A DNA stretch of 64,000 bases from a virus: the IMG/VR virus record IMGVR_UViG_3300045988_090087; one strand, written 5' to 3'. The notes under the pieces were generated by a model, which was given only the letters and a program-made list of their open reading frames with translations, was not told where the DNA came from and did not search any database. This document shows, piece by piece, positions 3,545 through 50,566 of the stretch. Position 1 is the stretch's first letter, and every line of letters begins with the position of its first letter. Both the position numbers and the translations under genes were made by a program.

Positions 3545-3625
3545 GTCTAGATAGCCAAGTGGTCAACGGCAGCAAGCTGTTAACTTGCCCCGAAAGGTTC
3601 CTAGGTTCGAATCCTAGTCTAGGCG
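3545..3625 (+). tRNA. tRNA with anticodon GTT (Asn codons) on a class-II-like body with a 12-nt variable arm
   Basis: Hand fold: acceptor gtctaga/tctaggc (one G-U), anticodon stem gcaag/cttgc, loop ctGTTaa, T arm ctagg-ttcgaat-cctag, discriminator G, 81 nt. Confidence 0.65.
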
Positions 3626-3636
3626 CAAAGACACAT

Positions 3637-3713
3637 GGAGTATTAAGCCCTGTTGGTAAGGGAACTAGACTGTCACTCTAGTAAAACTAAGGGTTCGAGT
3701 CCCTTATATTCCG
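3637..3713 (+). tRNA. tRNA-Asp (GTC)
   Basis: Acceptor ggagtat/atattcc, anticodon stem ctaga/tctag, loop ctGTCac, T loop ttcgagt; loop and T arm match the canonical bacterial tRNA-Asp pattern. Confidence 0.85.
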
Positions 3714-3858
3714 CAAATAATGGAGAGGACCTAGCATTTAACTAGGCGGTTGTTAGAGGTAGCGGTGGCGATCCACGAGTATGCCTGATAGCTCAATGTA
3801 TTATTAGAATATGGTCACGATAGTTCGCCCGTCTAATGCCATATTCGCCTTTATTTAA

Positions 3859-3931
3859 GCTTCAATAGCACAATTGATAGTGCAGCACTCTTGTAAAGTG
3901 CAGGTTATTGGTTTGAGTCCAATTAGAAGCT
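3859..3931 (+). tRNA. tRNA-Thr (TGT)
   Basis: 73-nt cloverleaf: D stem gcac/gtgc, anticodon stem gcact/agtgc, loop ctTGTaa, T arm attgg-tttgagt-ccaat; one A-A mismatch in the acceptor. Confidence 0.8.
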
Positions 3932-3943
3932 CTTTATTTATAT

Positions 3944-4016
3944 TTGAGGTGAGTGAAACGGCTTACACGTCTGTCTCATAAGCAGAAAACAGTGGGTTCA
4001 ACTCCCACACCTCGAA
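3944..4016 (+). tRNA. tRNA with CAT anticodon (elongator Met or Ile2)
   Basis: Anticodon stem tctgt/gcaga, loop ctCATaa, T arm gtggg-ttcaact-cccac, acceptor ttgaggt/acctcga. G at position 8 is atypical. No GGG/CCC initiator signature. Confidence 0.6.
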
Positions 4017-4055
4017 CTAAACGGTTATTGGTCTGAGTCCAATACCTACAACTAA
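4017..4055 (+). pseudogene. tRNA 3'-half remnant (T arm copy of tRNA-Thr)
   Basis: ggttattggtctgagtccaat matches tRNA-Thr 3904-3924 at all but one position; I could not pair any matching 5' half. Confidence 0.4.
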
Positions 4056-4072
4056 TTAATAAAATAAATAAT

Positions 4073-4549
4073 ATGAAAAAAACTTTTAATTATCAATCTG
4101 ACGCAAACTTTTATGATAAAAAGGATTTTATTATAGCTGTTTTAAAAAGCAAAATAAATAGGTTTAAAGAGTATGATGCTGAAAGAAAAAAGCATTATGC
4201 TGGATTAGAACAAAAAATCGGAGAATTAGAATCCTATATAGATGAATTAGAAAATGGACTTGGTATAGAATCTTTAAATAATAAGATTCAGTCTTTAGAA
4301 AATGAGATTGAGAAACAGAATCTTAAAATTAGAGAGTTAAGAGCTAAAGTTAATATATCTTTATTTGATAATACTAAGTCTTTTAGAGAATTAGAATCTA
4401 TGGCAAATAATTTGAAAGACTTTAATAGCATGAAATTAGCTATTAAAGGTCTCAAAAAACAGCTTAGAGATAATAAAAAAACTATATCTGATTTAGTATA
4501 TGAATTAACACAAGCTAAACTTAAAATAAAACAATTAACTGGAGAGTAA
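4073..4549 (+). CDS. hypothetical coiled-coil protein (158 aa)
   Basis: ORF with repeated LE/IE heptads; lies between tRNA genes. Confidence 0.65.
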   Translation: MKKTFNYQSDANFYDKKDFIIAVLKSKINRFKEYDAERKKHYAGLEQKIGELESYIDELENGLGIESLNNKIQSLENEIEKQNLKIRELRAKVNISLFDNTKSFRELESMANNLKDFNSMKLAIKGLKKQLRDNKKTISDLVYELTQAKLKIKQLTGE

Positions 4550-4559
4550 TCTCCAATTT

Positions 4560-4633
4560 GGGGCGTCGGCTCAAGTGGTCAGCACCTGCTTTGCACGCAG
4601 ACATTCTTAGGAGTTCGAATCTCCTACGCTCCA
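4560..4633 (+). tRNA. tRNA-Ala (TGC)
   Basis: Acceptor ggggcgt/acgctcc with the G3-U70 Ala identity pair, loop ttTGCac, T arm aggag-ttcgaat-ctcct. Confidence 0.8.
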
Positions 4634-4648
4634 CTAAAAAATATAAGT

Positions 4649-5392
4649 ATGAACATTAAAGAACTTACAAATAAAGAATTAATAAAATTATATAAGGAGC
4701 ATAAATGTTCTTTATAGGCTATAGAAAAAGATTTAGGATTAACTAAAAATTAGGCAGGAAGATTATTCAGAGCAAGAAATATTGATTATAAAAGTTTGAA
4801 AAATCAATATTTAATAGATTTAGAAATGGATTATTATAACCATCCAAATGTTTGTAAATATTGTGGAAATCCTTTACCTTACAAATATAAGGGAAGTTTT
4901 TGTAATCAATCTTGTGCGGCTTCCTATAATAACATTTAGAGAAGGACTTCAGAACATAAAAATAAAGGACCCCAAAAAAATTATCATTGTTTAAACTGTG
5001 GTAAAGAACTCAAATATGTTTCTGGAAATTATATGAAATATTGTTCTGCAAAATGTCAGACTGAATATCAACATAAAGAGTATATTAAACGATGGAAAAA
5101 TGGTGAAGAGACAGGTGTTACTGGTAAAACTGATATATCTACCCATATACGTAAATATTTAAAAGAAAAATTTAATAATTCTTGCCAAAAATGTGGGTGG
5201 AATTAGATAAATTATTTCACAGGTTTAGTACCATTACAAATCCATCATATTGATGGAGATTGTTTAAATAATAAAGAAAAAAATCTTTAGTTACTATGTC
5301 CTAATTGTCACGCTTTAACCGAGAATTATGGCAGTAGAAACAAAAATTCAAAGAGAACTTCTAGAAGAATACATTATGAAAATAACTATTGA
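4649..5392 (+). CDS. HNH homing-type endonuclease, readable only with 5 in-frame TAG codons as sense
   Basis: ATG 4649 to TGA 5390-5392. TAGs at 4715, 4751, 4937, 5204, 5288; no other stops. Cys-rich zinc-ribbon pairs and PLQIHHIDGD...NL(TAG)LLCPNCHA HNH core. Confidence 0.8.
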
Positions 5393-5714
5393 TACAGACA
5401 ATTTAGAAACATTAAAGTATAAAACTGAAGATGTTCCTATTTTAATGAAGACTTTCCAACAATTAATAAATAAATTAATGTATGAAGTAATAGGGAATTA
5501 TTATTCTGTAGACAATGTTCCTGAAGATACTCCAAAATGGGTAAAAGAAGAACTACTTAATGTAGGAAAAATCTGTTATATGGATGGGCATATGAATAAA
5601 GAATATGTCTTTAAAGGTATTCAAGAAACATTTGAGGATTATTATTATATATTAGAAGATAATAATAAAAAAATTTCTTATTCTTCATGCGTTGGAAAGA
5701 TATCTTATAAATAA
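5376..5714 (+). CDS. hypothetical protein
   Basis: ORF-track 5328..5714; start moved to ATG 5376 (MKITID...) because upstream codons belong to the HNH gene in another frame. Confidence 0.6.
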   Translation: MKITIDTDNLETLKYKTEDVPILMKTFQQLINKLMYEVIGNYYSVDNVPEDTPKWVKEELLNVGKICYMDGHMNKEYVFKGIQETFEDYYYILEDNNKKISYSSCVGKISYK

Positions 5715-5716
5715 AT

Positions 5717-5794
5717 GCAAGATTAGTGTAGCTGAAGGCGCATATCTGGCTTCCAACCAGAAGGCTTGCGTGGGTTTGATTCCCACATCTTGCA
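5717..5794 (+). tRNA. tRNA-Gly (TCC)
   Basis: Perfect acceptor gcaagat/atcttgc, anticodon stem tctgg/ccaga, loop ctTCCaa, T arm gtggg-tttgatt-cccac; unusually long (8 nt) variable region in my fold. Confidence 0.7.
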
Positions 5795-6194
5795 CTATGA
5801 TAAAGCTCTAGAATACTAGTTACAGGAGCAACGTAACTTATAGGGTGCCTCTCAACGATGCATACTCGCCTATTAGGTGTCGTAGAACCTACGAACTGGA
5901 ATGATTCGATGGTTTTTTGCATTCCTATAGAATCCTAAATAATAAAAATAGAGACCATGTCTCTAACAGGGGTGATTTACCTGGGATTCTTAATTTTTTA
6001 AACTCTCCTCCTAGATATTTTATAAGTTAAACTTTAAATTTGATTTATTATGATGAAAATTTTAAAAAGAACTTTAAAAGCATTTAAGAAGGGTTGGACT
6101 TGGTATGCTAATCAGTATTGTAGATTATACATGCCTCCAATTATTTAATCTTATTATTTAATTTGTAAGTACCAAAGGGGTACTTACTGATGTT

Positions 6195-7448: not shown

Positions 7449-7483
7449 AAGAAATTGTAGAAGCCTTTGATGGCAAAAAGAAA

Positions 7484-7520
7484 GGGACTAGTAAGTTTAT
7501 CTTATTAGTCCCTATTTTTG
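7484..7520 (+). terminator. rho-independent terminator
   Basis: 12-bp stem gggactagtaag/cttattagtccc (one G-U), 5-nt loop, then TATTTTTG. Confidence 0.6.
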
Positions 7521-7550: not shown

Positions 7551-7751
7551 ATGGTTAAGTATAAAAAGTGTGGGGCATTACGAATTAGAATAGATGGTAA
7601 TAAATGTATTGTAGTAAATCTTAGATTACCTTCTATTACTAGTCGTAGTACTTCATATTTAGGGTTTTTAAGAGAAACTATTTTAGATAGTAATAAGCAA
7701 GAGTTTAATAATGCTGTAGAAACGATCTGTACTAGGATTAAATCTTTATAG
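7551..7751 (+). CDS. hypothetical protein (ends in TAG)
   Basis: 66-aa ORF; one of the few plus-arm ORFs terminated by TAG. Confidence 0.4.
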   Translation: MVKYKKCGALRIRIDGNKCIVVNLRLPSITSRSTSYLGFLRETILDSNKQEFNNAVETICTRIKSL

Positions 7752-7817
7752 TATTATATTATTTTACTTATCATAACGCAGATGATTATTAGTAGAAAAT
7801 TATTAATATGATTAAAT

Positions 7818-8000
7818 GTGTTTATTGATTTAACATTAGACAGCAATAGTATTAATAGAAGATATTTAATAGCCGTAGATGATATTTCCGTAGTAGAAGA
7901 AGCTGGAGAAAGCTCTTATGTAATGTTAAAGAGTGGTGACTATCTTTCTGTGAAGGAATCTATTGATTATATAAAGTCTTTATTAAATGTTGTCAAATGA
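7818..8000 (+). CDS. hypothetical protein
   Basis: 60-aa ORF with non-ATG (GTG) start; overlaps next ORF. Confidence 0.35.
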   Translation: MFIDLTLDSNSINRRYLIAVDDISVVEEAGESSYVMLKSGDYLSVKESIDYIKSLLNVVK

Positions 8001-8214
8001 AAAAGTAAATGTAAATTTAGGATGTGGAGGATGGGTTATTCCAGTAACTTTTATTATTTTATTAGTTGCTAAAGTTATTCTACATTCAGATATTTCATGG
8101 TTAGTTGTTTTTAGCCCATTCTTAATAGGAATAGGACTCATAATTATACTCTGTATCATATTGCTAATTTTATATTGTATACCTGATGGAAGATCTAACA
8201 GACATTATAGATGA
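7987..8214 (+). CDS. small membrane protein
   Basis: Two long hydrophobic segments in 75 aa. Confidence 0.5.
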   Translation: MLSNEKVNVNLGCGGWVIPVTFIILLVAKVILHSDISWLVVFSPFLIGIGLIIILCIILLILYCIPDGRSNRHYR

Positions 8215-8250
8215 CCTAGATGATTATTGGAATGATCTAGAAGCAGACTA

Positions 8251-8436
8251 TTGGAATTCCTTAGAAAAAGAAGGATTATGAATTCAGATACTCTTGTAAT
8301 AAAAGTAAATAAAGCTTGGAAAACATTAATTGCAGAGTCTCCTATATATCTATTAATGTTTAATAGAGAGTTAGGAAAGTGTAAAGACTTTTTTATTCTA
8401 GGATATTATACAGCAATTAGGGATTCTCACTTATGA
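8251..8436 (+). CDS. hypothetical protein
   Basis: 61-aa ORF whose stop overlaps the next start (ATGA). Confidence 0.4.
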   Translation: MEFLRKRRIMNSDTLVIKVNKAWKTLIAESPIYLLMFNRELGKCKDFFILGYYTAIRDSHL

Positions 8437-8660
8437 ATTATCAAAAAGCTAGTCAAGTATCTCTATTAGTAGAATTAATTAAATCTTCTGAAATAATGTC
8501 TAAAGAATATTCTGAAGCACATATACCAGAAGATTTAATTTCTAATATAAAGATATTGTGTATGAAAGATAATAGTTTTAGAAGAAGTTTCTATAGTATA
8601 ATGCAGAAACTTGGAAAGAAATATTCAGATATTTATATAAATAAATTATCAGCATTATGA
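8433..8660 (+). CDS. hypothetical protein
   Basis: ATGA-type overlaps at both ends. Confidence 0.5.
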   Translation: MNYQKASQVSLLVELIKSSEIMSKEYSEAHIPEDLISNIKILCMKDNSFRRSFYSIMQKLGKKYSDIYINKLSAL

Positions 8661-9160
8661 ACTTAGTTTGGTTAAAGTTAATAAAACGAATTTTAACTCA
8701 TAAGTATTATGTTGCTAAATATTGCTTTCAAATAGGATTATATTGGCAAGGTATTACTCATGATTTATCTAAATTTAGTTTTATAGAATTTTCAAGAGCT
8801 ATTAAGTATTGGGATGATAAAATGAGCTCTTTAGCGAATGAGTGCAGAATATTAGGATATAGTCAAACATTCCTTCACCATAGAGGAAGAAATCCTCATC
8901 ATTATGAATATTGGATACATTCCTTAGATAATGGAGGAATTCCTGCTAAAATGCCTAAAAAATATGTTCTAGAACTTATATGTGATTATTTAGCAGCAGC
9001 TAAAACATATGGAGCTGACCCTAGAAGAGAATATACATGGTGGCTTAAACAACAACCTCATATGAAAATCCACAAAAAAACTAAGAGTTATATAACTGAA
9101 GTGTTTTATAAATATAGTATAGGTTTAACATTAAAAGAATCAATTAATGGAAATTATTAA
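8657..9160 (+). CDS. hypothetical His-rich protein
   Basis: 167-aa ORF with HDLSK and HHRGRNPHHYEYW motifs; directly upstream of the NAD module. Confidence 0.6.
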   Translation: MNLVWLKLIKRILTHKYYVAKYCFQIGLYWQGITHDLSKFSFIEFSRAIKYWDDKMSSLANECRILGYSQTFLHHRGRNPHHYEYWIHSLDNGGIPAKMPKKYVLELICDYLAAAKTYGADPRREYTWWLKQQPHMKIHKKTKSYITEVFYKYSIGLTLKESINGNY

Positions 9161-10700
9161 TGCAACTGATGGCTATAAGCTTGGTCATCATCGTATGTAC
9201 CCAGAGGGTACACAAATGGTCTATAGTAACTGGACTCCTAGAAGTAATCGTTACTTCCCAGAAGCTACAGAAGGTTCTGTAGTATTTGGTATTCAGTACT
9301 TTGTAAAGAAGTATTTGATAGAGGAATTTAACAAATGGTTTGCTCTTCCTAAGGAAGAAGCTATTAAGCAATTTGCTTATCGTGTAGGTAACTTTGTAGA
9401 CCTTAATCAGGTTGGGACAAAGCATATTGAAGAACTTTATGATTTAGGATATCTTCCTATTGAAATTAAAGCTCTTCCTGAAGGTTCTATCTGTCCTATA
9501 AGAGTACCTATGATGACTATTAAGAACACTCTTCCTGATTTCTTCTGGTTGACTAATTACTTGGAAACTTTAATTAGTTGTACTCTATGGCTTCCTTGTA
9601 CTTCTGCAACAAGTGCTCGTCTCTATAAAAAGAGACTTATGGAACATGCTAGAAAGACTGGATTCCCAGAAGATGTAAATCTAGGTTTCTCTTGTCACGA
9701 TTTCTCAATGAGAGGTATGGCAGGACTTGATGCTGCTATTATTTCAGGTATGGCTCATATGACTTCATTCTGTGGTAGTGAAACAATTCCTGCTATTGAA
9801 GCAGTAGAGCATTATTACGATGCAGATGTTACTGAAGAACTTGTAGCTGCAACTGTCCCGGCTTCGGAACATTCAGTAATGTGCGCAGGAGGTGAGGATG
9901 GTGAGATTGAAACATACCGCCGTCTTATTAATGACTTATATCCAACAGGTATTATCTCAATAGTATCTGATACTTGGGATTTTTGGCAGGTAGTTGAGAA
10001 ATTCTTGCCTAAGCTTAAGGCAGATATTATGAAACGTGTTGGTCGAGTAGTAATTCGTCCTGATAGTGGTGACCCAGTGGATATTATTTGTGGTCTTCGT
10101 ACAAATCCTCACTATCATACTGCTATGAAAGAGGGTAAGTACTACTGTGATTTCAATCCATTTATGGATGATGATGAGAGTCATTATGTAGAAGTATCTG
10201 AAGGTCAGTATTATGGAGCATATTATATGCTAGGTAAAATCTTTGGATGGAATACTACTGTAAATGATTATCGTTATCCAAGTACTAAAGTAGGTTTGCT
10301 CTATGGAGATTCTATCACTCTGGAGCGTCAGCGTGATATCTATGCTAGATTGGAAAACGCTCATATGGCAGCTTGTAATCTTGTTCTAGGTATTGGATCT
10401 TATACTTATCAGTTTAAGAGTAGAGATTCTTTGGGTTTCGCAGTTAAAGCGACCGCATGCACCATTAATGGTAAACTTATAGAAATCTATAAGCACCCAA
10501 AGACTGATGATGGAACAAAGAACTCTCTTAAAGGTCTTATAAGAGTTGAAAAAGAGGATGGTAAGTATGTTGCTTATGACCAGCAGACTAAGGATGCAGA
10601 ACTACAAGGTTGTCTTAAAACAGTCTTTGTAGATGGAGAATTAGTAAGAGAATATTCTCTTTCTGAAATTCGTGAACGTGTAAATTCAACATTAGTATGA
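9147..10700 (+). CDS. nicotinamide phosphoribosyltransferase family protein (NAMPT/NadV-like, or Namat-like)
   Basis: 517 aa; N-terminal TDGYKLGHHRMYP and overall type-II PRTase pattern typical of NAMPT. Confidence 0.85.
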   Translation: MEIINATDGYKLGHHRMYPEGTQMVYSNWTPRSNRYFPEATEGSVVFGIQYFVKKYLIEEFNKWFALPKEEAIKQFAYRVGNFVDLNQVGTKHIEELYDLGYLPIEIKALPEGSICPIRVPMMTIKNTLPDFFWLTNYLETLISCTLWLPCTSATSARLYKKRLMEHARKTGFPEDVNLGFSCHDFSMRGMAGLDAAIISGMAHMTSFCGSETIPAIEAVEHYYDADVTEELVAATVPASEHSVMCAGGEDGEIETYRRLINDLYPTGIISIVSDTWDFWQVVEKFLPKLKADIMKRVGRVVIRPDSGDPVDIICGLRTNPHYHTAMKEGKYYCDFNPFMDDDESHYVEVSEGQYYGAYYMLGKIFGWNTTVNDYRYPSTKVGLLYGDSITLERQRDIYARLENAHMAACNLVLGIGSYTYQFKSRDSLGFAVKATACTINGKLIEIYKHPKTDDGTKNSLKGLIRVEKEDGKYVAYDQQTKDAELQGCLKTVFVDGELVREYSLSEIRERVNSTLV

Positions 10701-11191
10701 TAAAAATTGTTAGTGGAGATTTACTCCAATCAAATTTACCTCTTATAGCCCATCAAACTAATTGTTTAGGAGTAATGGGGGCTGGTATAGCTAAAGCTAT
10801 TAAAAATAAATGGAATAGCGTATATACACAATATGCTAATTATTGTAAAAATTTTGAATACTCTAAAAATTTATTAGGGAAATGTCAAATATGTGTAACT
10901 GGAGAATTTCCTATTAAATTTGTAGCTAATTTATTTGGAGAATATTCTTTTACTGAATCAGTAGCTCCTTTTGAAAATAGACATACTGATTATAATGCTC
11001 TTAAAAAAGCTTTGTTAAATTTAAAAGCTTTTTGTGAAGACGAAGAAGTAACAGAAGTAGGTATTCCTTATAAATTAGGATGTGGATTAGCAGGAGGAGA
11101 TTGGGATGGAGTAGTTTATCCTATGCTTCAAGAACTTTTTGCTAATGATTCAACAATAACTCTTTATATTTATAAATTATGCAACAATTAA
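10697..11191 (+). CDS. macro domain protein (ADP-ribose binding/hydrolase)
   Basis: IVSGDLL...LIAHQTNCLGVMGAGIAKAI... matches the macro-domain N-terminal and glycine-rich loops. Confidence 0.8.
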   Translation: MIKIVSGDLLQSNLPLIAHQTNCLGVMGAGIAKAIKNKWNSVYTQYANYCKNFEYSKNLLGKCQICVTGEFPIKFVANLFGEYSFTESVAPFENRHTDYNALKKALLNLKAFCEDEEVTEVGIPYKLGCGLAGGDWDGVVYPMLQELFANDSTITLYIYKLCNN

Positions 11192-11988
11192 ATTTAGTAT
11201 ATCTAGAAGATAGTGATATTAAATATTCTATCTCTAGATTTCCTGATGGGGAAGTCCAAATTTCATTAGAAGAATTTAGTCATAAGGAACAAGTATTAGT
11301 AAAATGTAGAATTACTAATGCTGAAGACTTATTTATACTTATGCAAGTTTTAGATATCCTTGATAGACATGAAGTTCTATATAAAATAAATATCTATTAC
11401 TTAATGAGTATGAGAATGGATCGAGTAATGGTTTTCAATAGACCATTTACTTTAAAAATAGTCTTAAATGTATTAAAAAATTGTAATGCAGAGACTATTG
11501 AAATTTTAGAACCTCATTCTGATGTTTATTATGATCCTAGATTCGGAGTTAAATTCATGCCTCTTTACGCTGAAAAGAATCCATCTAATAATACTTGGAA
11601 AGAATTTCAATTAGTTTTCCCAGATGCTGGAGCTGAGAAGAGAAATGAATTCAGATATAATCGTAAAGCAATTACTTGTAGTAAAGTTCGAGATTTAACT
11701 ACTGGAAGAATCTTAGAGATTAAAATAGACAATCCTGAAATAATTAGTGATAAACCATTATTAATTCTTGATGATTTATGTGATGGTGGAGGCACTTTTT
11801 GTGGTATTGCTAAAGCATTTAATATTTTAGGTGTTCCTAAGGAACGTTTGAATATCGCAGTTACTCATATGGTAAATCCTAAGGGTATAAAGAATCTATC
11901 AGAAAACTTTAATCACGTATGGTTTACTAATTCTTATAAAGACTGGGACAATCTTCCTGAGAATGTTACAATGTTTAAGGTTATCTAA
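11179..11988 (+). CDS. ribose-phosphate pyrophosphokinase (Prs) family protein, possibly ADPR-pyrophosphate synthetase-like
   Basis: PRPP-binding loop LLILDDLCDGGGTF and Prs-like length and organisation. Confidence 0.8.
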   Translation: MQQLNLVYLEDSDIKYSISRFPDGEVQISLEEFSHKEQVLVKCRITNAEDLFILMQVLDILDRHEVLYKINIYYLMSMRMDRVMVFNRPFTLKIVLNVLKNCNAETIEILEPHSDVYYDPRFGVKFMPLYAEKNPSNNTWKEFQLVFPDAGAEKRNEFRYNRKAITCSKVRDLTTGRILEIKIDNPEIISDKPLLILDDLCDGGGTFCGIAKAFNILGVPKERLNIAVTHMVNPKGIKNLSENFNHVWFTNSYKDWDNLPENVTMFKVI

Positions 11989-12146
11989 TGTATATTTTGG
12001 GACTTATTATAACTATTATTTTGGTAATAATTATAATTGATCCAAGATTAGATATTACAGATAACCAATGTATATTGTGGTATTCAAATTTAGAAGGAGA
12101 ACGTTGTTATTTAATACTTTGGAATAAAAATGATCATTATAAATAA
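11988..12146 (+). CDS. small membrane protein (52 aa)
   Basis: Hand-translated MYILGLIITIILVIIIID...; TAATG overlap with the Prs-like gene; below track cutoff. Confidence 0.35.
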   Translation: MYILGLIITIILVIIIIDPRLDITDNQCILWYSNLEGERCYLILWNKNDHYK

Positions 12147-12456
12147 AAATGAATTAGACCCTGACTTAATTCATGACATTAATTTAGAGTTAGAAGCATT
12201 ATTTACAAATAATAGAACTTGGGAAATTAGTTCTAGTACTGGAGATTTAGATGATGCTTCAGATATACGAATTGTTATTAAAGGTGAGGGACATTGCTAT
12301 ATTTCCACAATAAGTGATACTGAAGAATACGTCAGAGATTTATTAAATGGTTATAGAAAAGCTCATAGTTTTGATACTTTTTGTATGTCTACAACGTATT
12401 TTGATCCTGAAAAGAACGGAATAGTATTTGAATATGCAGATTACATATCTTTATAA
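12130..12456 (+). CDS. hypothetical acidic protein
   Basis: 108-aa ORF in the operon. Confidence 0.55.
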   Translation: MIIINKNELDPDLIHDINLELEALFTNNRTWEISSSTGDLDDASDIRIVIKGEGHCYISTISDTEEYVRDLLNGYRKAHSFDTFCMSTTYFDPEKNGIVFEYADYISL

Positions 12457-12458
12457 CT

Positions 12459-12872
12459 ATGTTACAGATTTATACTGATGGTGCTTATAAATCTTCTATT
12501 GACCAGGGAGGTATTGGAATAGTATGGATGAAGGATGATGAAGTATTTAAAAAATACTCTAAAGGCTTTAAACATACTACTAATAATAAAATGGAATTAA
12601 TTGCTATGCTATGTGCTTTTAAGTCCATTAAAACTCCAATAGATGAAGTAGAATTTATAAGTGACAGTCAATATGTATTAGGATGTCTTACTAAAGGATG
12701 GAAGAAAAAAAAGAATGTAGAGCTCTGGAATATTTTAGATAAAGAATATGAAAGAGTTAAATCTTTAATAAAAAATATTAAATTTACCCATGTTAGGGGA
12801 CATCAAGATTGTTTTGGTAATAATCTAGCGGATGAATTAGCTAGTAATGCTAGTTTAGAATTATTAGAATAA
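12459..12872 (+). CDS. rnhA: ribonuclease HI
   Basis: IYTDGA..., NNKMEL, ISDSQYV, HVRGH...N..AD motifs (DEDD catalytic pattern of RNase H1). Confidence 0.85.
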   Translation: MLQIYTDGAYKSSIDQGGIGIVWMKDDEVFKKYSKGFKHTTNNKMELIAMLCAFKSIKTPIDEVEFISDSQYVLGCLTKGWKKKKNVELWNILDKEYERVKSLIKNIKFTHVRGHQDCFGNNLADELASNASLELLE

Positions 12873-13087
12873 TGTATTTAGTTATATTAATAATAATTGT
12901 TGCAGGTATAACTATTTATATTGGATCTGCATTTGCTGTTATAGACAGATGGACTGAAATTAATGTTCCTACTAATATAATAACAATATTAATATTAGTA
13001 TGTCCAATTATAAATACGTTATTAGCACTGTATTACCTGTATCCTGAATTAACAGAAACTTTAAGTAAAATTTTTAAAAATAATTAA
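12872..13087 (+). CDS. small membrane protein
   Basis: Two hydrophobic helices; TAATG overlap with rnhA. Confidence 0.5.
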   Translation: MYLVILIIIVAGITIYIGSAFAVIDRWTEINVPTNIITILILVCPIINTLLALYYLYPELTETLSKIFKNN

Positions 13088-13089
13088 TT

Positions 13090-13269
13090 ATGGCTAAAGA
13101 AATTGTAAAAGCAACAGTGGACACTATTACTATTTATCGTACTACTGGTGGTAAAATTGCGGTAAAACGTAGTGACCGATTAAAACCAAGTAGATATTTC
13201 GATGATATCAAAGATGCTCGTAAGTATGCTGATGAGCACTTTGAAGGTAATGTCTCAGAGTCTCTCTAA
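13090..13269 (+). CDS. hypothetical protein (59 aa)
   Basis: Hand-translated MAKEIVKATVDTITIYR...; below track cutoff. Confidence 0.4.
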   Translation: MAKEIVKATVDTITIYRTTGGKIAVKRSDRLKPSRYFDDIKDARKYADEHFEGNVSESL

Positions 13270-30757: not shown

Positions 30758-31972
30758 ATGTTATTTATGGTAATAAAGAGAGACGGAATTAAAGAAGAGT
30801 TTAACAGAAACAAAATTAGAGATGCTGTACTAAAGGCTTTTGGAATTACCCAAAATTCTAGTAAGACAATGGACGAAGATATTTACAGAGCAGTTACTGA
30901 GATAACTAATTCTGTAGTAGAAACTGAAGATCAATCCATTGAGGATATTCAAGACCAAATTGAAGAACTCTTAATGGATTTAGGATATTACAACGTAGCT
31001 AAAAAATATATTCTATATCGTAAAGAACGTGAAGATATTAGAAATCATGCTACTAGGGATATTAAATTTATTCATAATTTTGTAAAGTCTGATAATACTG
31101 CTAATGCTACTATTGATGATAATAGTAATGTTGGAACTAAAGGTATTGGAGTATTAAACGCTGAAATACATAAAGTCGATAATAAACTTACTAATACAGA
31201 ATGGTGGGAAAGTTTTGTAAAGAAGAGAGACCCTAACTTTAATATAAAAGTTATGAGGAATGACTTTAAAACTATTTTGTATCCTCATGACTCATCTTCT
31301 CAAGTAGGAGAACCATATTGTATGGCAGCTTCTATGTATCCTTTCTTGTTGTTTGGATTAGAGAAATTAGGAGGTAAATCAGCTGTTCCAAAGAACCTTG
31401 ATTCATTCTGTGGTATTTATGTAAATTTAAACTTTGCATTAGCCTCTGAAATTAAAGGAGCAGTAGCTACTCCTGAGTTTCTGATGTATATGGATTATTT
31501 CTGTAGAAAAGAATGGGGAAATAATTATTATCTCAAACCAAGTGTAAAAATAACTACAGATTATTGTATAAAACAGAAAACTATTGGCAGTCAAATTGAT
31601 CAATATTTCCAACAGGTAACTTATTCCATTAATCAAATAGCAGGAGCTAGAGGAATGCAGTCCCCATTTACAAATTTTTCATTCTTCGATAAATATTTCT
31701 TTGAAGGTATGTTTGGAGAATTTGTATTTCCAGATGGAACAAAGCCAGAATGGAATTCTACTAATTGGTTACAAAGACGTTATTTACATTGGTTAAATCA
31801 AGAAAGATTAAAATGTATCTTAACATTTCCTGTGTGTAGTTATGCTTGCTTAACAGATAAGGAAGGTAATTTTAAAGATTTAGATACTTTCCATTTTATA
31901 TGCAATGAATATGCTCAAGGAAATTCTTTCTTTACTTATTTGTCTCGTAGTGTAGATAGTTTAAGTTCATGT
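30758..31972 (+). CDS. nrdD: anaerobic ribonucleoside-triphosphate reductase NrdD, N-extein
   Basis: ATP-cone VIKRDGIKEEF..KI at the N-terminus; ends ...LSSC immediately before the intein Cys. Confidence 0.85.
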
Positions 31973-33031
31973 TGCTTTTCTAAAGATACTAAGTTTTTAT
32001 GGAAATCTAGCACTTCTGGAGTACATCTAACTACCTTTGAAGAATTTAAAAATCTTCCATATAAAAATATGAAAGAGAATTTTAAAGTATTTCACAATGG
32101 CTCTTGGGTAGCTGGCAAAGTTATAGATTTACCTAATCGTCCTATGTATAAAGTTACCACTTATAATAATAAAGAGTTTATTATGACTGATAATCATATA
32201 AATGTAACTTTACAAGGAGAAAAATCAACAGAACAGTTAACTATTAATGATTACTTATTATTCAATACTTCTAAGTTAAGTGCTATTCCAGATAATAATG
32301 AACATTTAACTTACGCCCAAGGTTATGTAATTGGATCATTTTTAGGTGATGGCTCTTTTAGTTCTGAAATAAATGGAGTTATCTATGATATTAATTTATC
32401 CCAAAATGAACAAAAATATAAACGTTCTAAATTTTATTGGAATCTCGCATTAAAACAAATGGGATATGAACCTAATGTGGTTTTAAAAGAAGTAGTAAAT
32501 AATGTTTATCCATTAAGGGTATCTAATAAAAATTTAGTTGCTTTTATTCAAAAATGGACTAATTGGTATAGAGGAACTTATGCTCATAATAAGAAATTAA
32601 ACATGAATTGTCTTCTTCAATCTGTAAAATTTAGAGAAGGTATACTACAAGGATGGTATGATACTGATGGGGGAAATTCTAACAGATGCTACACGACTTC
32701 TCCTGAATTAGCAGAAAATATGGAAGCCTTAATAACTTCTTTAGGAATGCAAAGCATTATTAATATATCAGATAGAACAGATGAAGAAGTTATAATACGC
32801 GGGGAACATTATAAAAGAAATTACCCATTATATTGTGTAAGATGGTATGAAGATGCAAATCATAGAGCTAATAAAGACAAGACACATAGTTGGATAAAAT
32901 ATAATAATGGAATATACTTTAAAATAAAATCTATCGAACCATATGATTACAATGATAGAGTATATTGTATAGAATGTAAAAATGCTTCTGAACCATATTT
33001 TACATTACCAAGTGGATTAATTACTCATAAT
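31973..33031 (+). mobile_element. intein with LAGLIDADG homing endonuclease domain (353 aa) inside NrdD
   Basis: Starts CFSKDT, ends ...LITHN followed by Cys. Internal LAGLIDADG motifs VIGSFLGDGSF and ILQGWYDTDGG. Excision restores SSC-CRLQN. Confidence 0.75.
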
Positions 33032-34045
33032 TGTCGTCTTCAAAATGCCGTACAAGAAAATACATTTAATACTACTAATGGTCAAATAGGTATAATGACT
33101 GGTAGTAAAAATGTTATTACTCTTGATTTAAATAGAATTATTCAGGATTGGCAGCATACTTGGTCTGATTATAAAGACCATATTGATGTTAACACCAATA
33201 GATGTTGTTTCCCAGTAGATTGGATTACACATAAAGACTTCCAAGAAGGAATTAAGAAATATATAGAAAATATTCTTGAAAGAGTTTATTTGTATCAGTA
33301 TGCTTATAACGACTTAATGCACTGGTGCAAAGATCATCATTTATATGCTGCTTATGATGCTGGTTTTATTAATCTTGATAAACAATATTTAACTATTGGA
33401 ATTAATGGCTTAAATCAGGCTGCTGAATACTTAGGAATGGAATGTAATAATAATATTTATTATAAGACATTCTGTAGATTGATATTCAGTACTATAAAAG
33501 AACAGAATAAGAAACATAAAACTAAAACAGCTCAATTTAATACTGAACAAGTACCCGCAGAAAGTGCTTCAGTAAAACTTTATAATAGAGATAAAGCTGA
33601 TGGTTATTGGATTCCTACAGACACTAATCTGTATGCTAGTTATATATTTAAACCTAATGATACACATATAAGTATACTTGATAAAATTATACTTCATAGT
33701 TCTGAATTCGCTGCTGATGAATTAGATGGAGGTTCTGCTTGTCATCTTAATTTATCTGAACATTTGAGTCAGAAACAATATGAGTATTTACTTAAATTTA
33801 TGGCTAAAGTAGGTTGTAAATATGCTACTTTTAATATTCCTAATTGTGAATGTGAAGAGTGTCATTTTATAGCAAAACAACCGTTTAGTAAATGTCCTAA
33901 ATGTGGTAGTACGCATGTAAGTCTATGGGATAGAATTATCGGCTATCTTACAAAGATTTCTAACTGGAGTGCTGCTAGACAACTAGAAGGTAGTACTAGA
34001 AGTAGAAAGAATGAATTAGAAATTAATATAGAATTAGCACAATGA
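33032..34045 (+). CDS. nrdD: NrdD, C-extein
   Basis: C-terminal Zn ribbon CECEEC...CPKCGS and glycyl-radical motif RIIGYL. Confidence 0.85.
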   Translation, partial: CRLQNAVQENTFNTTNGQIGIMTGSKNVITLDLNRIIQDWQHTWSDYKDHIDVNTNRCCFPVDWITHKDFQEGIKKYIENILERVYLYQYAYNDLMHWCKDHHLYAAYDAGFINLDKQYLTIGINGLNQAAEYLGMECNNNIYYKTFCRLIFSTIKEQNKKHKTKTAQFNTEQVPAESASVKLYNRDKADGYWIPTDTNLYASYIFKPNDTHISILDKIILHSSEFAADELDGGSACHLNLSEHLSQKQYEYLLKFMAKVGCKYATFNIPNCECEECHFIAKQPFSKCPKCGSTHVSLWDRIIGYLTKISNWSAARQLEGSTRSRKNELEINIELAQ

Positions 34046-45335: not shown

Positions 45336-46556
45336 ATGATTTATTTAGTTACCAAGGTTAAAGCTTTATTCAAATCTTCTAAATATGAATGTATTTCCAT
45401 AGAAAGAAGTAAGGAAATTATTAATTCTATGAAAAAAATTAGAGGATTAGATACTGAAACTATGGGACTAAATCCTCATACTAAAGCATTACTAACAGTT
45501 CAGATAGGTACTAAAGAAAATCAAGTAGTAATTGATTGTACTACTATAAACATTTGGGAATATAAAGATATATTAGAAGATTCTACTATTCTATATATTT
45601 TAGCTAATGCTAAATTTGATATTCAATTCTTCTTTAAACATAACATTATATTATCTAAAGTATGGGATGTAATGTTAGCTGAAAAGATTAGATATTTGGG
45701 ATATCCTAAAGGTAGTTTCCATGCTGACTTAAAGACTCTTGAATACAAGTATCTTAATAAATATATGGATAAAACTGTTCGAGGTAAAATTACTAAAGTT
45801 GGTCTAACTGAGGAAGTAATAGTTTATGCAGCTAATGATGTAGTAGATTTGGAAGATTTAATGAATGCCCAAATAAAAGCACTAGAAAAAGAAGATTTAG
45901 TAAAGGCAGTACAATTAGAGAATAGATTTGTCCTTCCATTGGCTTATATGGAATGGTGTGGAGTAAAATTAGACGTAGAAAAATGGAAAGCTAAAATGGT
46001 AAAAGATGCTAAACGTTTAAAGGTTGCCCTAACTAAATTAAATAATTGGGTAGTAAAACACTATGGAAATGATTCTAGATTTACTAAGGTAGATTTACAA
46101 GGGGATTTATTTTCAGGATTTAATACTGACCCACAGTGTACTATAAATTGGAATAGTGCAGCTCAAGTAATTCCATTATTTAAAGCTATTGGAATAAATA
46201 CTTCTACTGTAGATAGTAAAACAAAGAAATTAAAAGATTCTGTAGATGCTAAATTATTAGAGCCTCAAGCTAAGGATTTTGAAATTCTTCCTATTTATCT
46301 AGATTATAAGGAAGCTCAAAAAGTATGTTCTACTTATGGACAGAACTGGTTAGACCAAATAAATCCTGAAACTGGTAGAGTATATACTAAGTTTAATCAG
46401 CTAGGTACTAATACTGCTAGAATATCTAGTGGTGGAAAAGATAAGAATGCTAAAATAGAATATGTAAATTTTCTTAATCTTCCAGCAGATCCAGAAACTA
46501 GAAGTTGTTTTATTGCAGAAAAAGGTAACTCTTGGATTTCCATAGACTACTCGGGT
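45336..46556 (+). CDS. family A DNA polymerase with 3'-5' exonuclease, exon 1
   Basis: Exo motifs GLDTETMGL and YAANDV; ends in polymerase motif A ...SIDYSG. Confidence 0.85.
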
Positions 46557-46878
46557 AAAAAATAAACATATAAACTATAACATTTTATATATTATACTTT
46601 GGATAATTTATCTGTAAATAAATCAGAGGATGTGTTAAAAATGTTTTATAGTTTATATCATAATGCTCATTATTTTCTAAAAAGAAAATATGAAAAATTT
46701 GGCCCCCTTGTAAGGAAACTTACAGGTGAAAACCTCGTAAATTCAGTTAATGAACGGGCATTATCAAAGACTGAGCCAAGCCTTATAATAAAGGAAGGTG
46801 CAGAGACTAGAAACGAGGAGCCTAAAATAAATGATTAAATTTATCATGGCTGAGGTATAGTCCAGCGTGTTTACGTAG
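46557..46878 (+). mobile_element. group I intron 1 in polA (322 nt, no homing endonuclease)
   Basis: 5' exon ends in T and the intron ends in G. Conserved core elements cagagactagaaa and gaggtatagtcc (P7 strands). Splicing gives DYSG-QEKFIMA. Confidence 0.7.
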
Positions 46879-47544
46879 CAAGAAAGTTTCATTATGGCTT
46901 CCATTTCTAATGACAAAGCTTTAATACATGAATTAATGGAAGGAAGTGGGGATTTGCATTCTCTAACTGCTTATATGAGTTATCCTGATCAAATACCAAG
47001 AGATACAAAAATAACAGAAATTAAAGAAAAGTATCACCATCTTAGACAGCTAGCTAAGAAAATTGAGTTTGGATTCAATTATGGTGGAGACTTTAATACT
47101 ATACATAGGAATTTAGGTATCTCTATAGAAGAAGCTAAAAAAATATATGAAAATTATATGTCGGGTTTCTCAGGATTAGCTAAGTACCAAGAGTATTGTA
47201 GAAAGATAGTAATGGAAAAAGGCTATATACTTCTAAATCCTATAAGTAAATATAGAGCACATATATATGATTTTGAATCTCTACGTTCAATGCAAGAAAA
47301 AATGCAAGATAGGGAATTTTGGAAGTATTATAGAGAAATGAAACGAGAGTCTCCTAACTGTGATACAGTACAAGAAGTACGAGACTTCTTTAAGAAAAAG
47401 GGTGAGTGTGAAAGGAATAGTATAAATTATAGAATACAACATACTGGAGCTTTATGTTATAAAGTAAGTATGATTTATTTCTTTAAATGGATAATAGAAA
47501 ATAATCTTTTTAATAAGGTTTTAATTACTGTTACCCCCTACGAT
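46879..47544 (+). CDS. family A DNA polymerase, exon 2
   Basis: GDLHSLTA and motif B RQLAKKIEFGFNYGG; ends ...TPYD. Confidence 0.85.
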
Positions 47545-48409
47545 AAATAATCTTGTCGTAGTAAAACGATGTTAATTGCTTGGAACTCCTAAAGATTTAA
47601 TTACTAAATTATTGAAATAATAAACTAGTAAAAATATTAAATATGATTTTACCTCGGTTAAAAGAAATGGACAATAAGCAGCTTTATAATTTTACAAGAG
47701 AACAAACTCAAGTATTTTTAACAGGACTGTTAGGTGATGGATGTATATCCACTACAAATAGTGGTAGTTATATTTATACCACAAATTGTAAACATCTTGA
47801 ATATTTAGAATTTAAAAAGAAATTATTAGGTAAAGGGAATATTAAACTTCAAGAAAAAAATGGCTATAGTCAAACTCCTATATATACTATGTATGGAGGA
47901 GCTTACCCAGAATTATTTGAGTTTAAAAAATTTACTGTTCAAGATGTTATTGAAAATCTAGATTTACTTGGGTTAGCATTATGGTTTTATGATGATGGCA
48001 GCCTTCATAAAAGAGATTTATATTATAATTTAAATACTCAAAAGTTCCCAAAGTATATACAAGAAGGAATTTTTATTCCATGGTTTGATTCCTTGGGCAT
48101 TAAAGCTAATTTAAGGCACGATACAAAAAGGGAAAAAGAATTGTATTATTTAGGAATTAATAAATATGAAGGAGCTAATATTATTAGTGAAATACTATCA
48201 CGTTATCCATTAGATTGTTACTCTTATAAATTATGGAGTTCAGAGACTATCCTGAAATGGAGTAAGCTGCAAGAGCAGGTGAAAAGCATCGATGAAAATC
48301 TTACTAATAGGCAGTTAGCTTATAAGTGGAGATTTTTATAAGATATAGTCCGAACCTATATGAAAGTATAGGAGAATATATGGAATCGATATATTCGTAA
48401 CAATATATG
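47545..48409 (+). mobile_element. group I intron 2 in polA (865 nt) carrying a LAGLIDADG endonuclease ORF
   Basis: 5' exon ends in T and the intron ends in G. Core elements gttcagagactat and aagatatagtccgaacc. Splicing gives motif C ...YD-EINCE. Confidence 0.7.
47643..48341 (+). CDS. LAGLIDADG homing endonuclease (intron-encoded)
   Basis: Two LAGLIDADG motifs: FLTGLLGDGCIS and LALWFYDDGSL. Confidence 0.8.
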   Translation: MILPRLKEMDNKQLYNFTREQTQVFLTGLLGDGCISTTNSGSYIYTTNCKHLEYLEFKKKLLGKGNIKLQEKNGYSQTPIYTMYGGAYPELFEFKKFTVQDVIENLDLLGLALWFYDDGSLHKRDLYYNLNTQKFPKYIQEGIFIPWFDSLGIKANLRHDTKREKELYYLGINKYEGANIISEILSRYPLDCYSYKLWSSETILKWSKLQEQVKSIDENLTNRQLAYKWRFL

Positions 48410-49982: not shown

Positions 49983-50201
49983 ATGTTTTTTAATAAAACT
50001 TTTACTGACGAACTTTCTAGTATTAAATCTGCTTTTCAGTCTACTCACGATAAAACCGCTTCTCTTATAGAGCGAATGAATACTAAAATCACATCTAAAG
50101 AAAATTCTATTAAAGAGTTACAGTATGAAATTAAAGAAATTGAGGATATCAAAGCTCAGGCAGATAATTTTGTAACTAATCTTAAAAATATTCTTGATTA
50201 A
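49983..50201 (+). CDS. hypothetical coiled-coil protein (start uncertain)
   Basis: Track ORF 49902..50201 has a non-ATG start; first ATG at 49983. Confidence 0.45.
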   Translation: MFFNKTFTDELSSIKSAFQSTHDKTASLIERMNTKITSKENSIKELQYEIKEIEDIKAQADNFVTNLKNILD

Positions 50202-50566
50202 TGTATAAAGTAAAAGAAACTTTCGAGTATCTTGTAAACGATCCAAATAACTTTTGCTCAGTACATGATGCCTTAGAAATGGATACAAGTATGCCTTGTC
50301 CTTGTTGGGAGGGAAGTAAAGTTCCTGTAAATGAAAAAGGAGAAGAAGAATCTATCCCATGGGGTAATAGTGAAGTATCTATTACTGATATAGGTAATAT
50401 TGTAAAAATTGATAAGGATACTCTTTTAAAGTTAATTAAGAATTCTGAGAAATTATCAACATTAGAAGAGTGGGGAGTAGATAATTGGATAAATTATGGT
50501 GAAGCCATGCAATATTTGGATGATTCACCTGATGAAGTGTTACTTAAACAATATTTAGATGATTGA
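50201..50566 (+). CDS. hypothetical acidic protein
   Basis: 121-aa ORF, TAATG junction. Confidence 0.55.
   Translation: MYKVKETFEYLVNDPNNFCSVHDALEMDTSMPCPCWEGSKVPVNEKGEEESIPWGNSEVSITDIGNIVKIDKDTLLKLIKNSEKLSTLEEWGVDNWINYGEAMQYLDDSPDEVLLKQYLDD

Follow-up and report, generated by a model that had tools for sequence, protein, structure and literature searches.

The window, a 64,000-nucleotide stretch of viral DNA (IMG/VR record IMGVR_UViG_3300045988_090087), carries on its plus strand a cassette of four overlapping genes that resembles the NAD+ reconstitution pathway 1 (NARP1) of other phages. Three of these genes, at 9147-11988, had been singled out in an earlier reading of the DNA (here called the sequence-only reading), and the ORF coordinates and lengths it gave were exact for all three. 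The cassette is made up as follows.

8657..9160, plus strand: DUF5662 protein, 167 aa, His-rich, possibly an HD-like metal-dependent hydrolase (Pfam PF18907, 2.4e-31)
9147..10700, plus strand: predicted Namat, a nicotinamide phosphoribosyltransferase (NAMPT)-like nicotinamide ADP-ribose transferase, 517 aa (similarity to SpβL1 Namat, clamp motif)
10697..11191, plus strand: Adpp-like macro-domain protein, 164 aa, a putative ADP-ribose (ADPR)-1''-phosphate phosphatase (Pfam Macro, homology to Gary Adpp)
11179..11988, plus strand: predicted Adps, a Prs-like ADP-ribose pyrophosphokinase, 269 aa (phrog_619, Adps residues, PP loop)

The DUF5662 and Namat genes overlap by 14 nt, the Namat and macro genes by 4 nt (ATGA) and the macro and Adps genes by 13 nt. 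These junctions fit translational coupling, which the sequence-only reading had proposed for the last three genes. The E-values of the family assignments lie far beyond chance. Purifying selection acts on each of the four genes, the ratio of nonsynonymous to synonymous substitution rates (dN/dS) being 0.02-0.04 in DUF5662, 0.03-0.10 in Namat, 0.08-0.19 in Adps and 0.29-0.49 in the macro gene. What was directly observed of the cassette is this selection, together with its operon structure, its conservation and the family membership that the sequence signatures show.

The 517-aa protein belongs to the nicotinamide phosphoribosyltransferase family, as had been read from its translation (Pfam NAPRTase 1.6e-34 and NAMPT_N 3.8e-09; phrog_448 3.7e-178). 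Among all PDB sequences it matched 9W5X/9W5W with 469 bits (E 1.8e-139), against 201-208 bits for the NAMPT of human, rat and Xanthomonas. Both entries are crystal structures of Namat from phage SpβL1, an enzyme validated biochemically (PMC12774641). For the second-best Namat-like match, PDB 9KE8/9KEO, no identity was found in the literature. The selectivity-clamp helix of Namat has the motif GS-X-Φ-X-Φ-X-Φ-TRD, of which the aromatics stack on the adenine of ADPR pyrophosphate (ADPR-PP), and a selectivity-clamp loop contributes an Arg, Lys or Tyr (PMC12774641). The helix motif reads GSYTYQFKSRD at residues 417-427 of the 517-aa protein (G417, Y419, F423, D427), with aromatics at motif positions 3, 5 and 7, Lys as the third Φ and Ser in place of Thr. 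The same motif is present in the Namats of ICP1, Thalassavirus and Pakpunavirus, and a NadV-type phage NAMPT has GGGLLQQSDRD. In the loop, R40 of SpβL1 was aligned to R35, followed by Y36 and F37; the loop being variable, this stacking residue is a weaker criterion for Namat. The catalytic residues His242 (PASEHSV) and Arg304 (IRPDSGDP; Arg306 in SpβL1 Namat) are kept.

The best relatives in the phage collection, at 36-47% identity, come from ICP1, Felixounavirus, Pakpunavirus, Thalassavirus and myoviruses of Bacillus, Staphylococcus and Listeria, all of them groups known to carry NARP1, and NadV-type enzymes in the same collection reach merely 24-31%. With the Namat of Vibrio phage Gary the identity is 41% (E 6e-118). 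Judged by these signatures the 517-aa protein is a Namat rather than a NadV-type NAMPT, with its activity predicted from that class. Relative to the Namats of SpβL1 and ICP1 it carries an insertion of about 40 aa (residues 317-356, window 10095-10214). At this position the Namats of Thalassavirus and Pakpunavirus likewise carry an insertion, the K-Y-[YF] motif being common to them, and both groups also have a macro gene.

The 269-aa protein had been described as a Prs-family enzyme with the loop DDLCDGGGT. The motif is indeed found at residues 198-206 and the protein matches phrog_619 (3.1e-60), with scores below every curated NCBIfam Prs cut-off (for TIGR01251, 62 bits against a cut-off of 113). 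Its top matches in the PDB are canonical Prs, at just 37 bits. It was aligned with the Adps of ICP1, Thalassavirus, Pakpunavirus and one sister phage and with E. coli Prs. Functional residues and a remodelled PP loop (C215-S220 plus F221), the latter conserved across Adps homologues, have been defined in a structural study of ICP1 Adps (PMC13586617). Residues R87, H121, D161, K185, D212, D213 and D216 of ICP1 Adps correspond to R79, H113, D149, K169, D198, D199 and D202, K169 being the counterpart of the catalytic Lys185 on the beta-hairpin. Such catalytic and acceptor residues are common to Adps and Prs and are thus necessary, not discriminating. The PP loop reads DDLCDGGGTF (C201, G203, F207), compared with DDICDGAASF in ICP1, DDICDGGATF in Pakpunavirus and DDMIDTGGTL in E. 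coli Prs, and it also matches the Gary Adps type. Both the N-terminal insertion of Prs and its C-terminal helices alpha11-alpha12 are missing, and the C-terminus coincides with that of other Adps, about 22 residues short of the E. coli Prs end. With Gary Adps the protein shares 28% identity (E 1e-18). On these scores and this alignment the 269-aa protein is an Adps, not a canonical Prs, and the pyrophosphokinase activity is predicted accordingly from its family.

A Pfam scan (E ≤ 1e-3) of the standard-code ORFs of at least 90 aa in the window gave no match to an NMN adenylyltransferase (NMNAT; CTP_transf_like), Nudix, NadR or NAD synthetase domain; it covers 64 kb of a genome of about 175-180 kb. 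The sequence-only reading had likewise seen no NMNAT, and had argued that a NAMPT-like/Prs-like pair without it fits the route through pyrophosphorylation of ADPR; the Namat and Adps residue signatures bear this out. The comparison it called for with canonical NAMPT and Prs, made here by sequence, gave failed Prs cut-offs and NAMPT scores much lower than those for Namat. An ordinary boost of NAD+ salvage, in which the Prs-like enzyme makes phosphoribosyl pyrophosphate (PRPP), the NAMPT-like enzyme makes NMN and an NMNAT of the host or from a distant part of the phage genome finishes the synthesis in the manner of NARP2/NadV, is very improbable. Such an NMNAT might lie beyond the 64 kb scanned, but none is present within them, the 269-aa protein falls under all curated Prs thresholds and has an Adps-type PP loop, and the 517-aa protein has the Namat clamp motif, a Namat score more than double its NAMPT score, and closest annotated relatives that are all from NARP1-encoding phages. 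Canonical NadV plus Prs was rejected on the curated cut-offs, the residue signatures and the relative scores. With NARP2, represented by KVP40 (NadV NAMPT and NatV NMNAT/Nudix), the cassette has in common a NAMPT-fold enzyme which, with nicotinamide, restores or would restore NAD+. Unlike the cassette, NARP2 needs PRPP and an NMNAT, and NadV-type phage NAMPTs lack the aromatic clamp motif.

The gene between Namat and Adps encodes a macro-domain protein, as the sequence-only reading had stated (Pfam Macro, PF01661, 9e-11, 42 bits against a cut-off of 22), which also matches phrog_335, annotated 'phosphatase', at 1.3e-37. A macro-domain gene is held by 15% of NARP1 operons (bioRxiv 10.64898/2026.01.28.702374, Sorek laboratory, Osterman et al., January 2026). 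According to the same preprint, NAD+ is cleaved by RES-domain defence proteins (aRES) and yields, besides nicotinamide, ADPR-1''-phosphate, on which Adps is unable to act. Adpp, the macro protein encoded by Vibrio phage Gary, is reported there to dephosphorylate this product to ADPR, and the three-gene operon, NARP1 with associated phosphatase (NARP1-AP), to override aRES. Adpp is defined operationally there as a Pfam macro match within two genes of the NARP1 pair (bioRxiv 10.64898/2026.01.28.702374), and the PF01661 protein of the window, encoded between Namat and Adps, falls within this definition. It is 37% identical to the tested Gary Adpp (KNV71_gp137, E 1e-27). The yeast ADPR-1''-phosphate phosphatase Poa1p was matched only distantly, with an E-value of about 4e-6 for the single sequence and of 2.6e-10 when a profile was used. 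The phage Adpp family lies, by sequence, in the macrodomain clade of SCO6735, BT1257, TARG1, DarG and Poa1p, and the protein has in common with these the macro fold and the ADPR-binding loops HQxNC...GxGIA...GCGLAGG.

The best relatives of known structure are the DarG macrodomain (5m3i, 1.2e-9), SCO6735, BT1257 and TARG1, the NCBIfam DarG score is 62.6 bits, and the gene evolves faster than its neighbours (omega 0.3-0.5), as a direct counter-defence protein might. These features would suit a protein independent of NAD+ rebuilding, namely an ADP-ribosyl hydrolase acting on phage DNA, RNA or proteins modified by DarT-like defences. We regard such a role as improbable. The catalytic Lys of DarG (K80) and TARG1 (K84) has no counterpart, FPTKKHW of DarG being aligned to LFGEYS and the KK of TARG1 to a Lys-free stretch (no Lys at residues 75-101), and the DarG score falls well short of the cut-off, 250. 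Moreover, the tested Gary protein, of the same family and in the same position, is an ADPR-1''-phosphate phosphatase, and what replaces it in sister phages is a putative phosphatase of HAD-like type and no hydrolase of ADP-ribose on macromolecules. A DarG-like antitoxin or anti-DarT identity was rejected on the absent Lys and the low score. By analogy with Gary, the macro protein most likely acts as Adpp on ADPR-1''-phosphate. The sequence-only reading had treated it as an extra component that either feeds ADPR-derived substrate or reverses ADP-ribosylation; the former agrees with the published Adpp of NARP1-AP, and the latter is less likely in view of the missing DarG/TARG1 Lys. At the nucleotide level the macro gene (10697-11191) is 90-93% identical to that of related loci (L011, L012, L017, L020, L025), compared with 96-98% in the flanks. 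Together with its dN/dS of 0.3-0.5, against 0.02-0.19 for its neighbours, this lower identity suggests exchange of alleles, or relaxed or diversifying selection.

Relatives of the DUF5662 gene were found at 80 viral loci (46-99% identity), many of which come from one IMG/VR source and are related, so that counts among them are not counts of independent events. In 47 of these loci (L035-L114), and also in L028 (5607-6038), L029 and L031-L033, the slot between Namat and Adps holds, in place of the macro gene, a protein of 135-156 aa without a Pfam match. Its family has more than 600 members, in which the four motifs of the HAD superfamily (DxDxT, Thr, Lys, DD) are invariant, and it matches phrog_1238 at 1e-18. 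The best matches of its structural model (pLDDT 83) are HAD nucleotidases and phosphatases and BT_0820, with a TM-score of 0.58-0.68 and weak E-values. Two unrelated phosphatase-type folds alternate in one slot, and this independently supports the view that the macro protein acts as a phosphatase. The words HAD and haloacid were not found in the NARP1-AP preprint (bioRxiv 10.64898/2026.01.28.702374), and the interchange of macro and HAD-like genes in most sister phages looks new. In locus L006 (MT836666.1, 5380-7365) the middle gene of the cassette is a truncated HAD-like ORF, and a segment of about 205 aa resembling an AAA ATPase continues in frame and with no stop into a Namat from which an internal stretch of the C-terminal part is deleted.

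The same alternation would also suit a middle-slot enzyme, macro or HAD-like, that dephosphorylates another ADPR species, such as ADPR-2'-phosphate (from NADP+ cleavage) or ADP-ribose 1'',2''-cyclic phosphate, produced by a gut-bacterial defence other than aRES. The macro protein is only 37% identical to the tested Adpp, which also leaves room for such a substrate. The macro fold and the Poa1p homology point instead to the 1''-phosphate, the known substrate of the clade, and nothing in this analysis pointed to a different one. An alternative substrate is therefore judged unlikely.

Considering the genes together, the module is probably a NARP1-AP. Its mechanism is taken from the characterised homologues, and every enzymatic activity, like the anti-defence phenotype, is predicted from them. 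A host NADase defence would cleave NAD+ into nicotinamide and ADPR. Adps (11179-11988) would then take the beta,gamma-pyrophosphate from ATP and attach it to ADPR at the 1'' hydroxyl, yielding ADPR-PP, which Namat (9147-10700) would join to nicotinamide to give NAD+ with no need for an NMNAT. The macro protein (10697-11191), as Adpp, would remove the 1''-phosphate from ADPR-1''-phosphate, the product of RES-type NAD+ phosphorylases (aRES) that is unusable by Adps, and through this step the pathway would also defeat aRES.

Several points weigh against a NARP1-AP. The proteins resemble their validated counterparts only moderately (28% identity for Adps, 37% for Adpp and 41-47% for Namat), the gene order is reversed relative to Gary, the host may lack aRES, and the search for an NMNAT covered just the 64 kb of the window. 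The adenine contacts F92 and F223 of ICP1 Adps are replaced by M84 and G209, at positions that are variable among other Adps too (C93 and S225 in Pakpunavirus) and appear not to define the family. Finally, a profile of the macro family scores SCO6735, BT1257, TARG1 and DarG at 60-69 bits and Poa1p at 44, so that the macro protein could instead be a de-ADP-ribosylase.

The Gary operon has the same three families in a contiguous operon with the macro gene in the centre. It differs in its order, Adps-Adpp-Namat as opposed to Namat-Adpp-Adps in the window, where the genes overlap and a DUF5662 gene lies upstream. Gary is moreover a Vibrio phage of the Demerecviridae, with an operon tested by assay, whereas the phage of the window is a human-gut phage of about 175-180 kb with TAG-recoded late genes. 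With the core NARP1 of SpβL1, Bas63 and ICP1 (Adps and Namat) the cassette shares the clamp motif and core of Namat, which is 44-47% identical to the Namats of ICP1 and of Bacillus and Staphylococcus phages, and the PP loop and catalytic Lys of Adps. It is set apart from this core by two extra genes (macro and DUF5662) and by the Namat insertion absent from ICP1 and SpβL1. In mycobacteriophage DyoEdafos, NARP1 is extended by RyDEP, a RyR-domain glycosidase acting on 2'/3'cADPR (PMC13232231). There too an accessory enzyme in the operon turns a modified ADPR into ADPR for Adps and Namat, but it is a glycosidase and not a putative macro phosphatase as in the window, among whose ORFs scanned against Pfam no RyR domain was matched. 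The sequence-only reading implied that the module was novel. The module is real, but its three-gene arrangement has already been described and tested as NARP1-AP. The cassette thus belongs to a known kind, and is distinguished by its reversed gene order, by the lineage of the phage and by the DUF5662 gene attached to it.

That fourth gene, the upstream His-rich ORF which the sequence-only reading had tentatively placed in the same unit, is a real gene of the Pfam family DUF5662 and lies in a NARP1 cassette at 67 of the 80 viral loci. The arrangement DUF5662-Namat-HAD-Adps accounts for 47 of them and DUF5662-Namat-Macro-Adps for 14, followed by DUF5662-Namat-Adps (three loci), a truncated or partial DUF5662-Namat (two loci) and Namat-HAD-DUF5662-Adps (one locus, L053, in which DUF5662 has moved between the HAD-like gene and Adps). 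At the other 13 loci, mostly those of the most distant relatives, DUF5662 stands alone. In bacterial genomes the gene is common in gut Clostridia (38-52% identity) and is unlinked to NARP1 in 77 of 80 loci, the exceptions being three phage-like contigs that had been assigned to metagenome-assembled genomes (MAGs). Clostridia with DUF5662 relatives (L118-L194) include Oscillibacter, Dysosmobacter and Lachnospiraceae, with no NARP1 genes within 5 kb. DUF5662 is a genuine, lineage-specific fourth member of the cassette, co-inherited with it, and in this phage lineage it is probably co-translated with it. As a conserved and strongly constrained fourth cassette gene it looks new.

The invariant residues of the DUF5662 family include H15, H35-D36, H74-H75, H81-H82, H88, D91, E106 and D110, and its AlphaFold2 model is all-alpha (pLDDT 79). 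No significant match to its fold was obtained by sequence search of the PDB or by Foldseek against the PDB (best E 0.8) and BFVD (0.18); several of the non-significant Foldseek matches are HD-domain hydrolases. The neighbours of the distant DUF5662 genes (a C5 methylase, a glucosyltransferase, an IMPDH-like gene and PcfJ) gave no coherent functional hint, and a literature search found no paper mentioning DUF5662. As a guess, put forward only as a hypothesis, the protein might be a metal-dependent HD-like hydrolase of another nucleotide or ADPR derivative.

The exact macro protein was found in 113 blocks of the assembly collection, with human-gut metagenome contigs of up to 179 kb, and contigs of more than 100 such blocks hold the cassette. 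The window is collinear with GenBank MT835492 at about 97% identity, and that record is without window positions 8753-10604, which comprise most of DUF5662 and Namat. The junction of this deletion lies at a 6-bp direct repeat, CAAGGT (window 8747-8752 and 10605-10610; 16836-16841 in L003, MT835492.1). L023 and L030 have lost parts of the cassette through two other independent deletions. An insert bearing a remnant of an HNH endonuclease interrupts the Namat gene of several sister phages, directly behind the catalytic His (PASEHSV). Such split genes occur in L015 (3241-5522), where the HNH remnant is found, and in L014, L016, L018, L019 and L022, with inserts of about 170-1200 bp. No group I intron was matched in these genes with Rfam. 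Downstream of the cassette, at a distance of 1-2 kb, the sister phages L031 (8880-10270), L032 (8982-10387) and L033 (9772-10522) have a ketoacyl-synthase gene, followed in L031 and L032 by an acyl-carrier-protein gene.

The phage itself is a human-gut phage of about 175-180 kb with TAG-recoded late genes on the minus strand. At 55742-63998 (minus strand) three ORFs of 1558, 775 and at least 427 aa exist only when TAG is read as sense, with 49, 43 and 22 in-frame TAG codons respectively; a PHROG search with two of the TAG-recoded ORFs gave no match. The early genes on the plus strand have standard stops (TAA 40, TGA 20, TAG 6). Five tRNA genes (Asn, Asp, Thr, Met, Gly) are clustered at 3545-5795, none of them a suppressor. 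MAG bins that hold phage-like contigs name Bacteroides, Intestinibacter and Clostridium, so no single host is indicated.

The window represents the replication and nucleotide-metabolism region of this large phage, encoding helicases, DnaB, NrdD/NrdG, dUTPase, ligase, a sigma factor, PolA, ThyX and a dNMP kinase. An intein that includes a LAGLIDADG domain interrupts NrdD, the anaerobic ribonucleotide reductase (30758-34045). The family A DNA polymerase extends over two ORFs (45336-46565 and 46894-47550), followed by a LAGLIDADG_2 endonuclease ORF at 47643-48341 (region 45336-48341). A 121-aa ORF at 50201-50566 has a domain like the RecBCD inhibitor gp5.9 of T7 (PF25708, 1.4e-8), and may be another counter-defence gene. 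A promoter scan gave results at chance level and was uninformative, no single host being indicated for the phage. One further feature lies upstream of the cassette.

7483..7513, plus strand: terminator-like hairpin, 13-bp stem and T run (weak evidence, from a pattern scan only)

This hairpin is a possible upstream boundary of the densely packed string of genes, 7551..13269, that holds the cassette.

NARP1-AP, shown earlier in a Vibrio phage, is hereby placed in abundant, uncultured large phages of the human gut with TAG-recoded late genes. It follows that NAD+-depleting defences, with RES-type NAD+ phosphorylases probably among them, are likely to exert real selective pressure in the gut. In a more speculative view, which we hold to be rather doubtful, NARP1 has turned into a four-gene cassette in this clade of large gut phages (DUF5662, Namat, an interchangeable phosphatase and Adps), in which DUF5662 would be a new metal-dependent accessory enzyme and the HAD-like protein a non-homologous analogue of Adpp, each turning a different compound, be it a modified ADPR or a breakdown product of NAD+, into ADPR. 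If true, gut bacteria would possess NAD+-targeting defences of which the products are not yet known. DUF5662 and the alternation of macro and HAD-like genes could add to the accessory enzymes known to channel modified ADPR into the rebuilding of NAD+.

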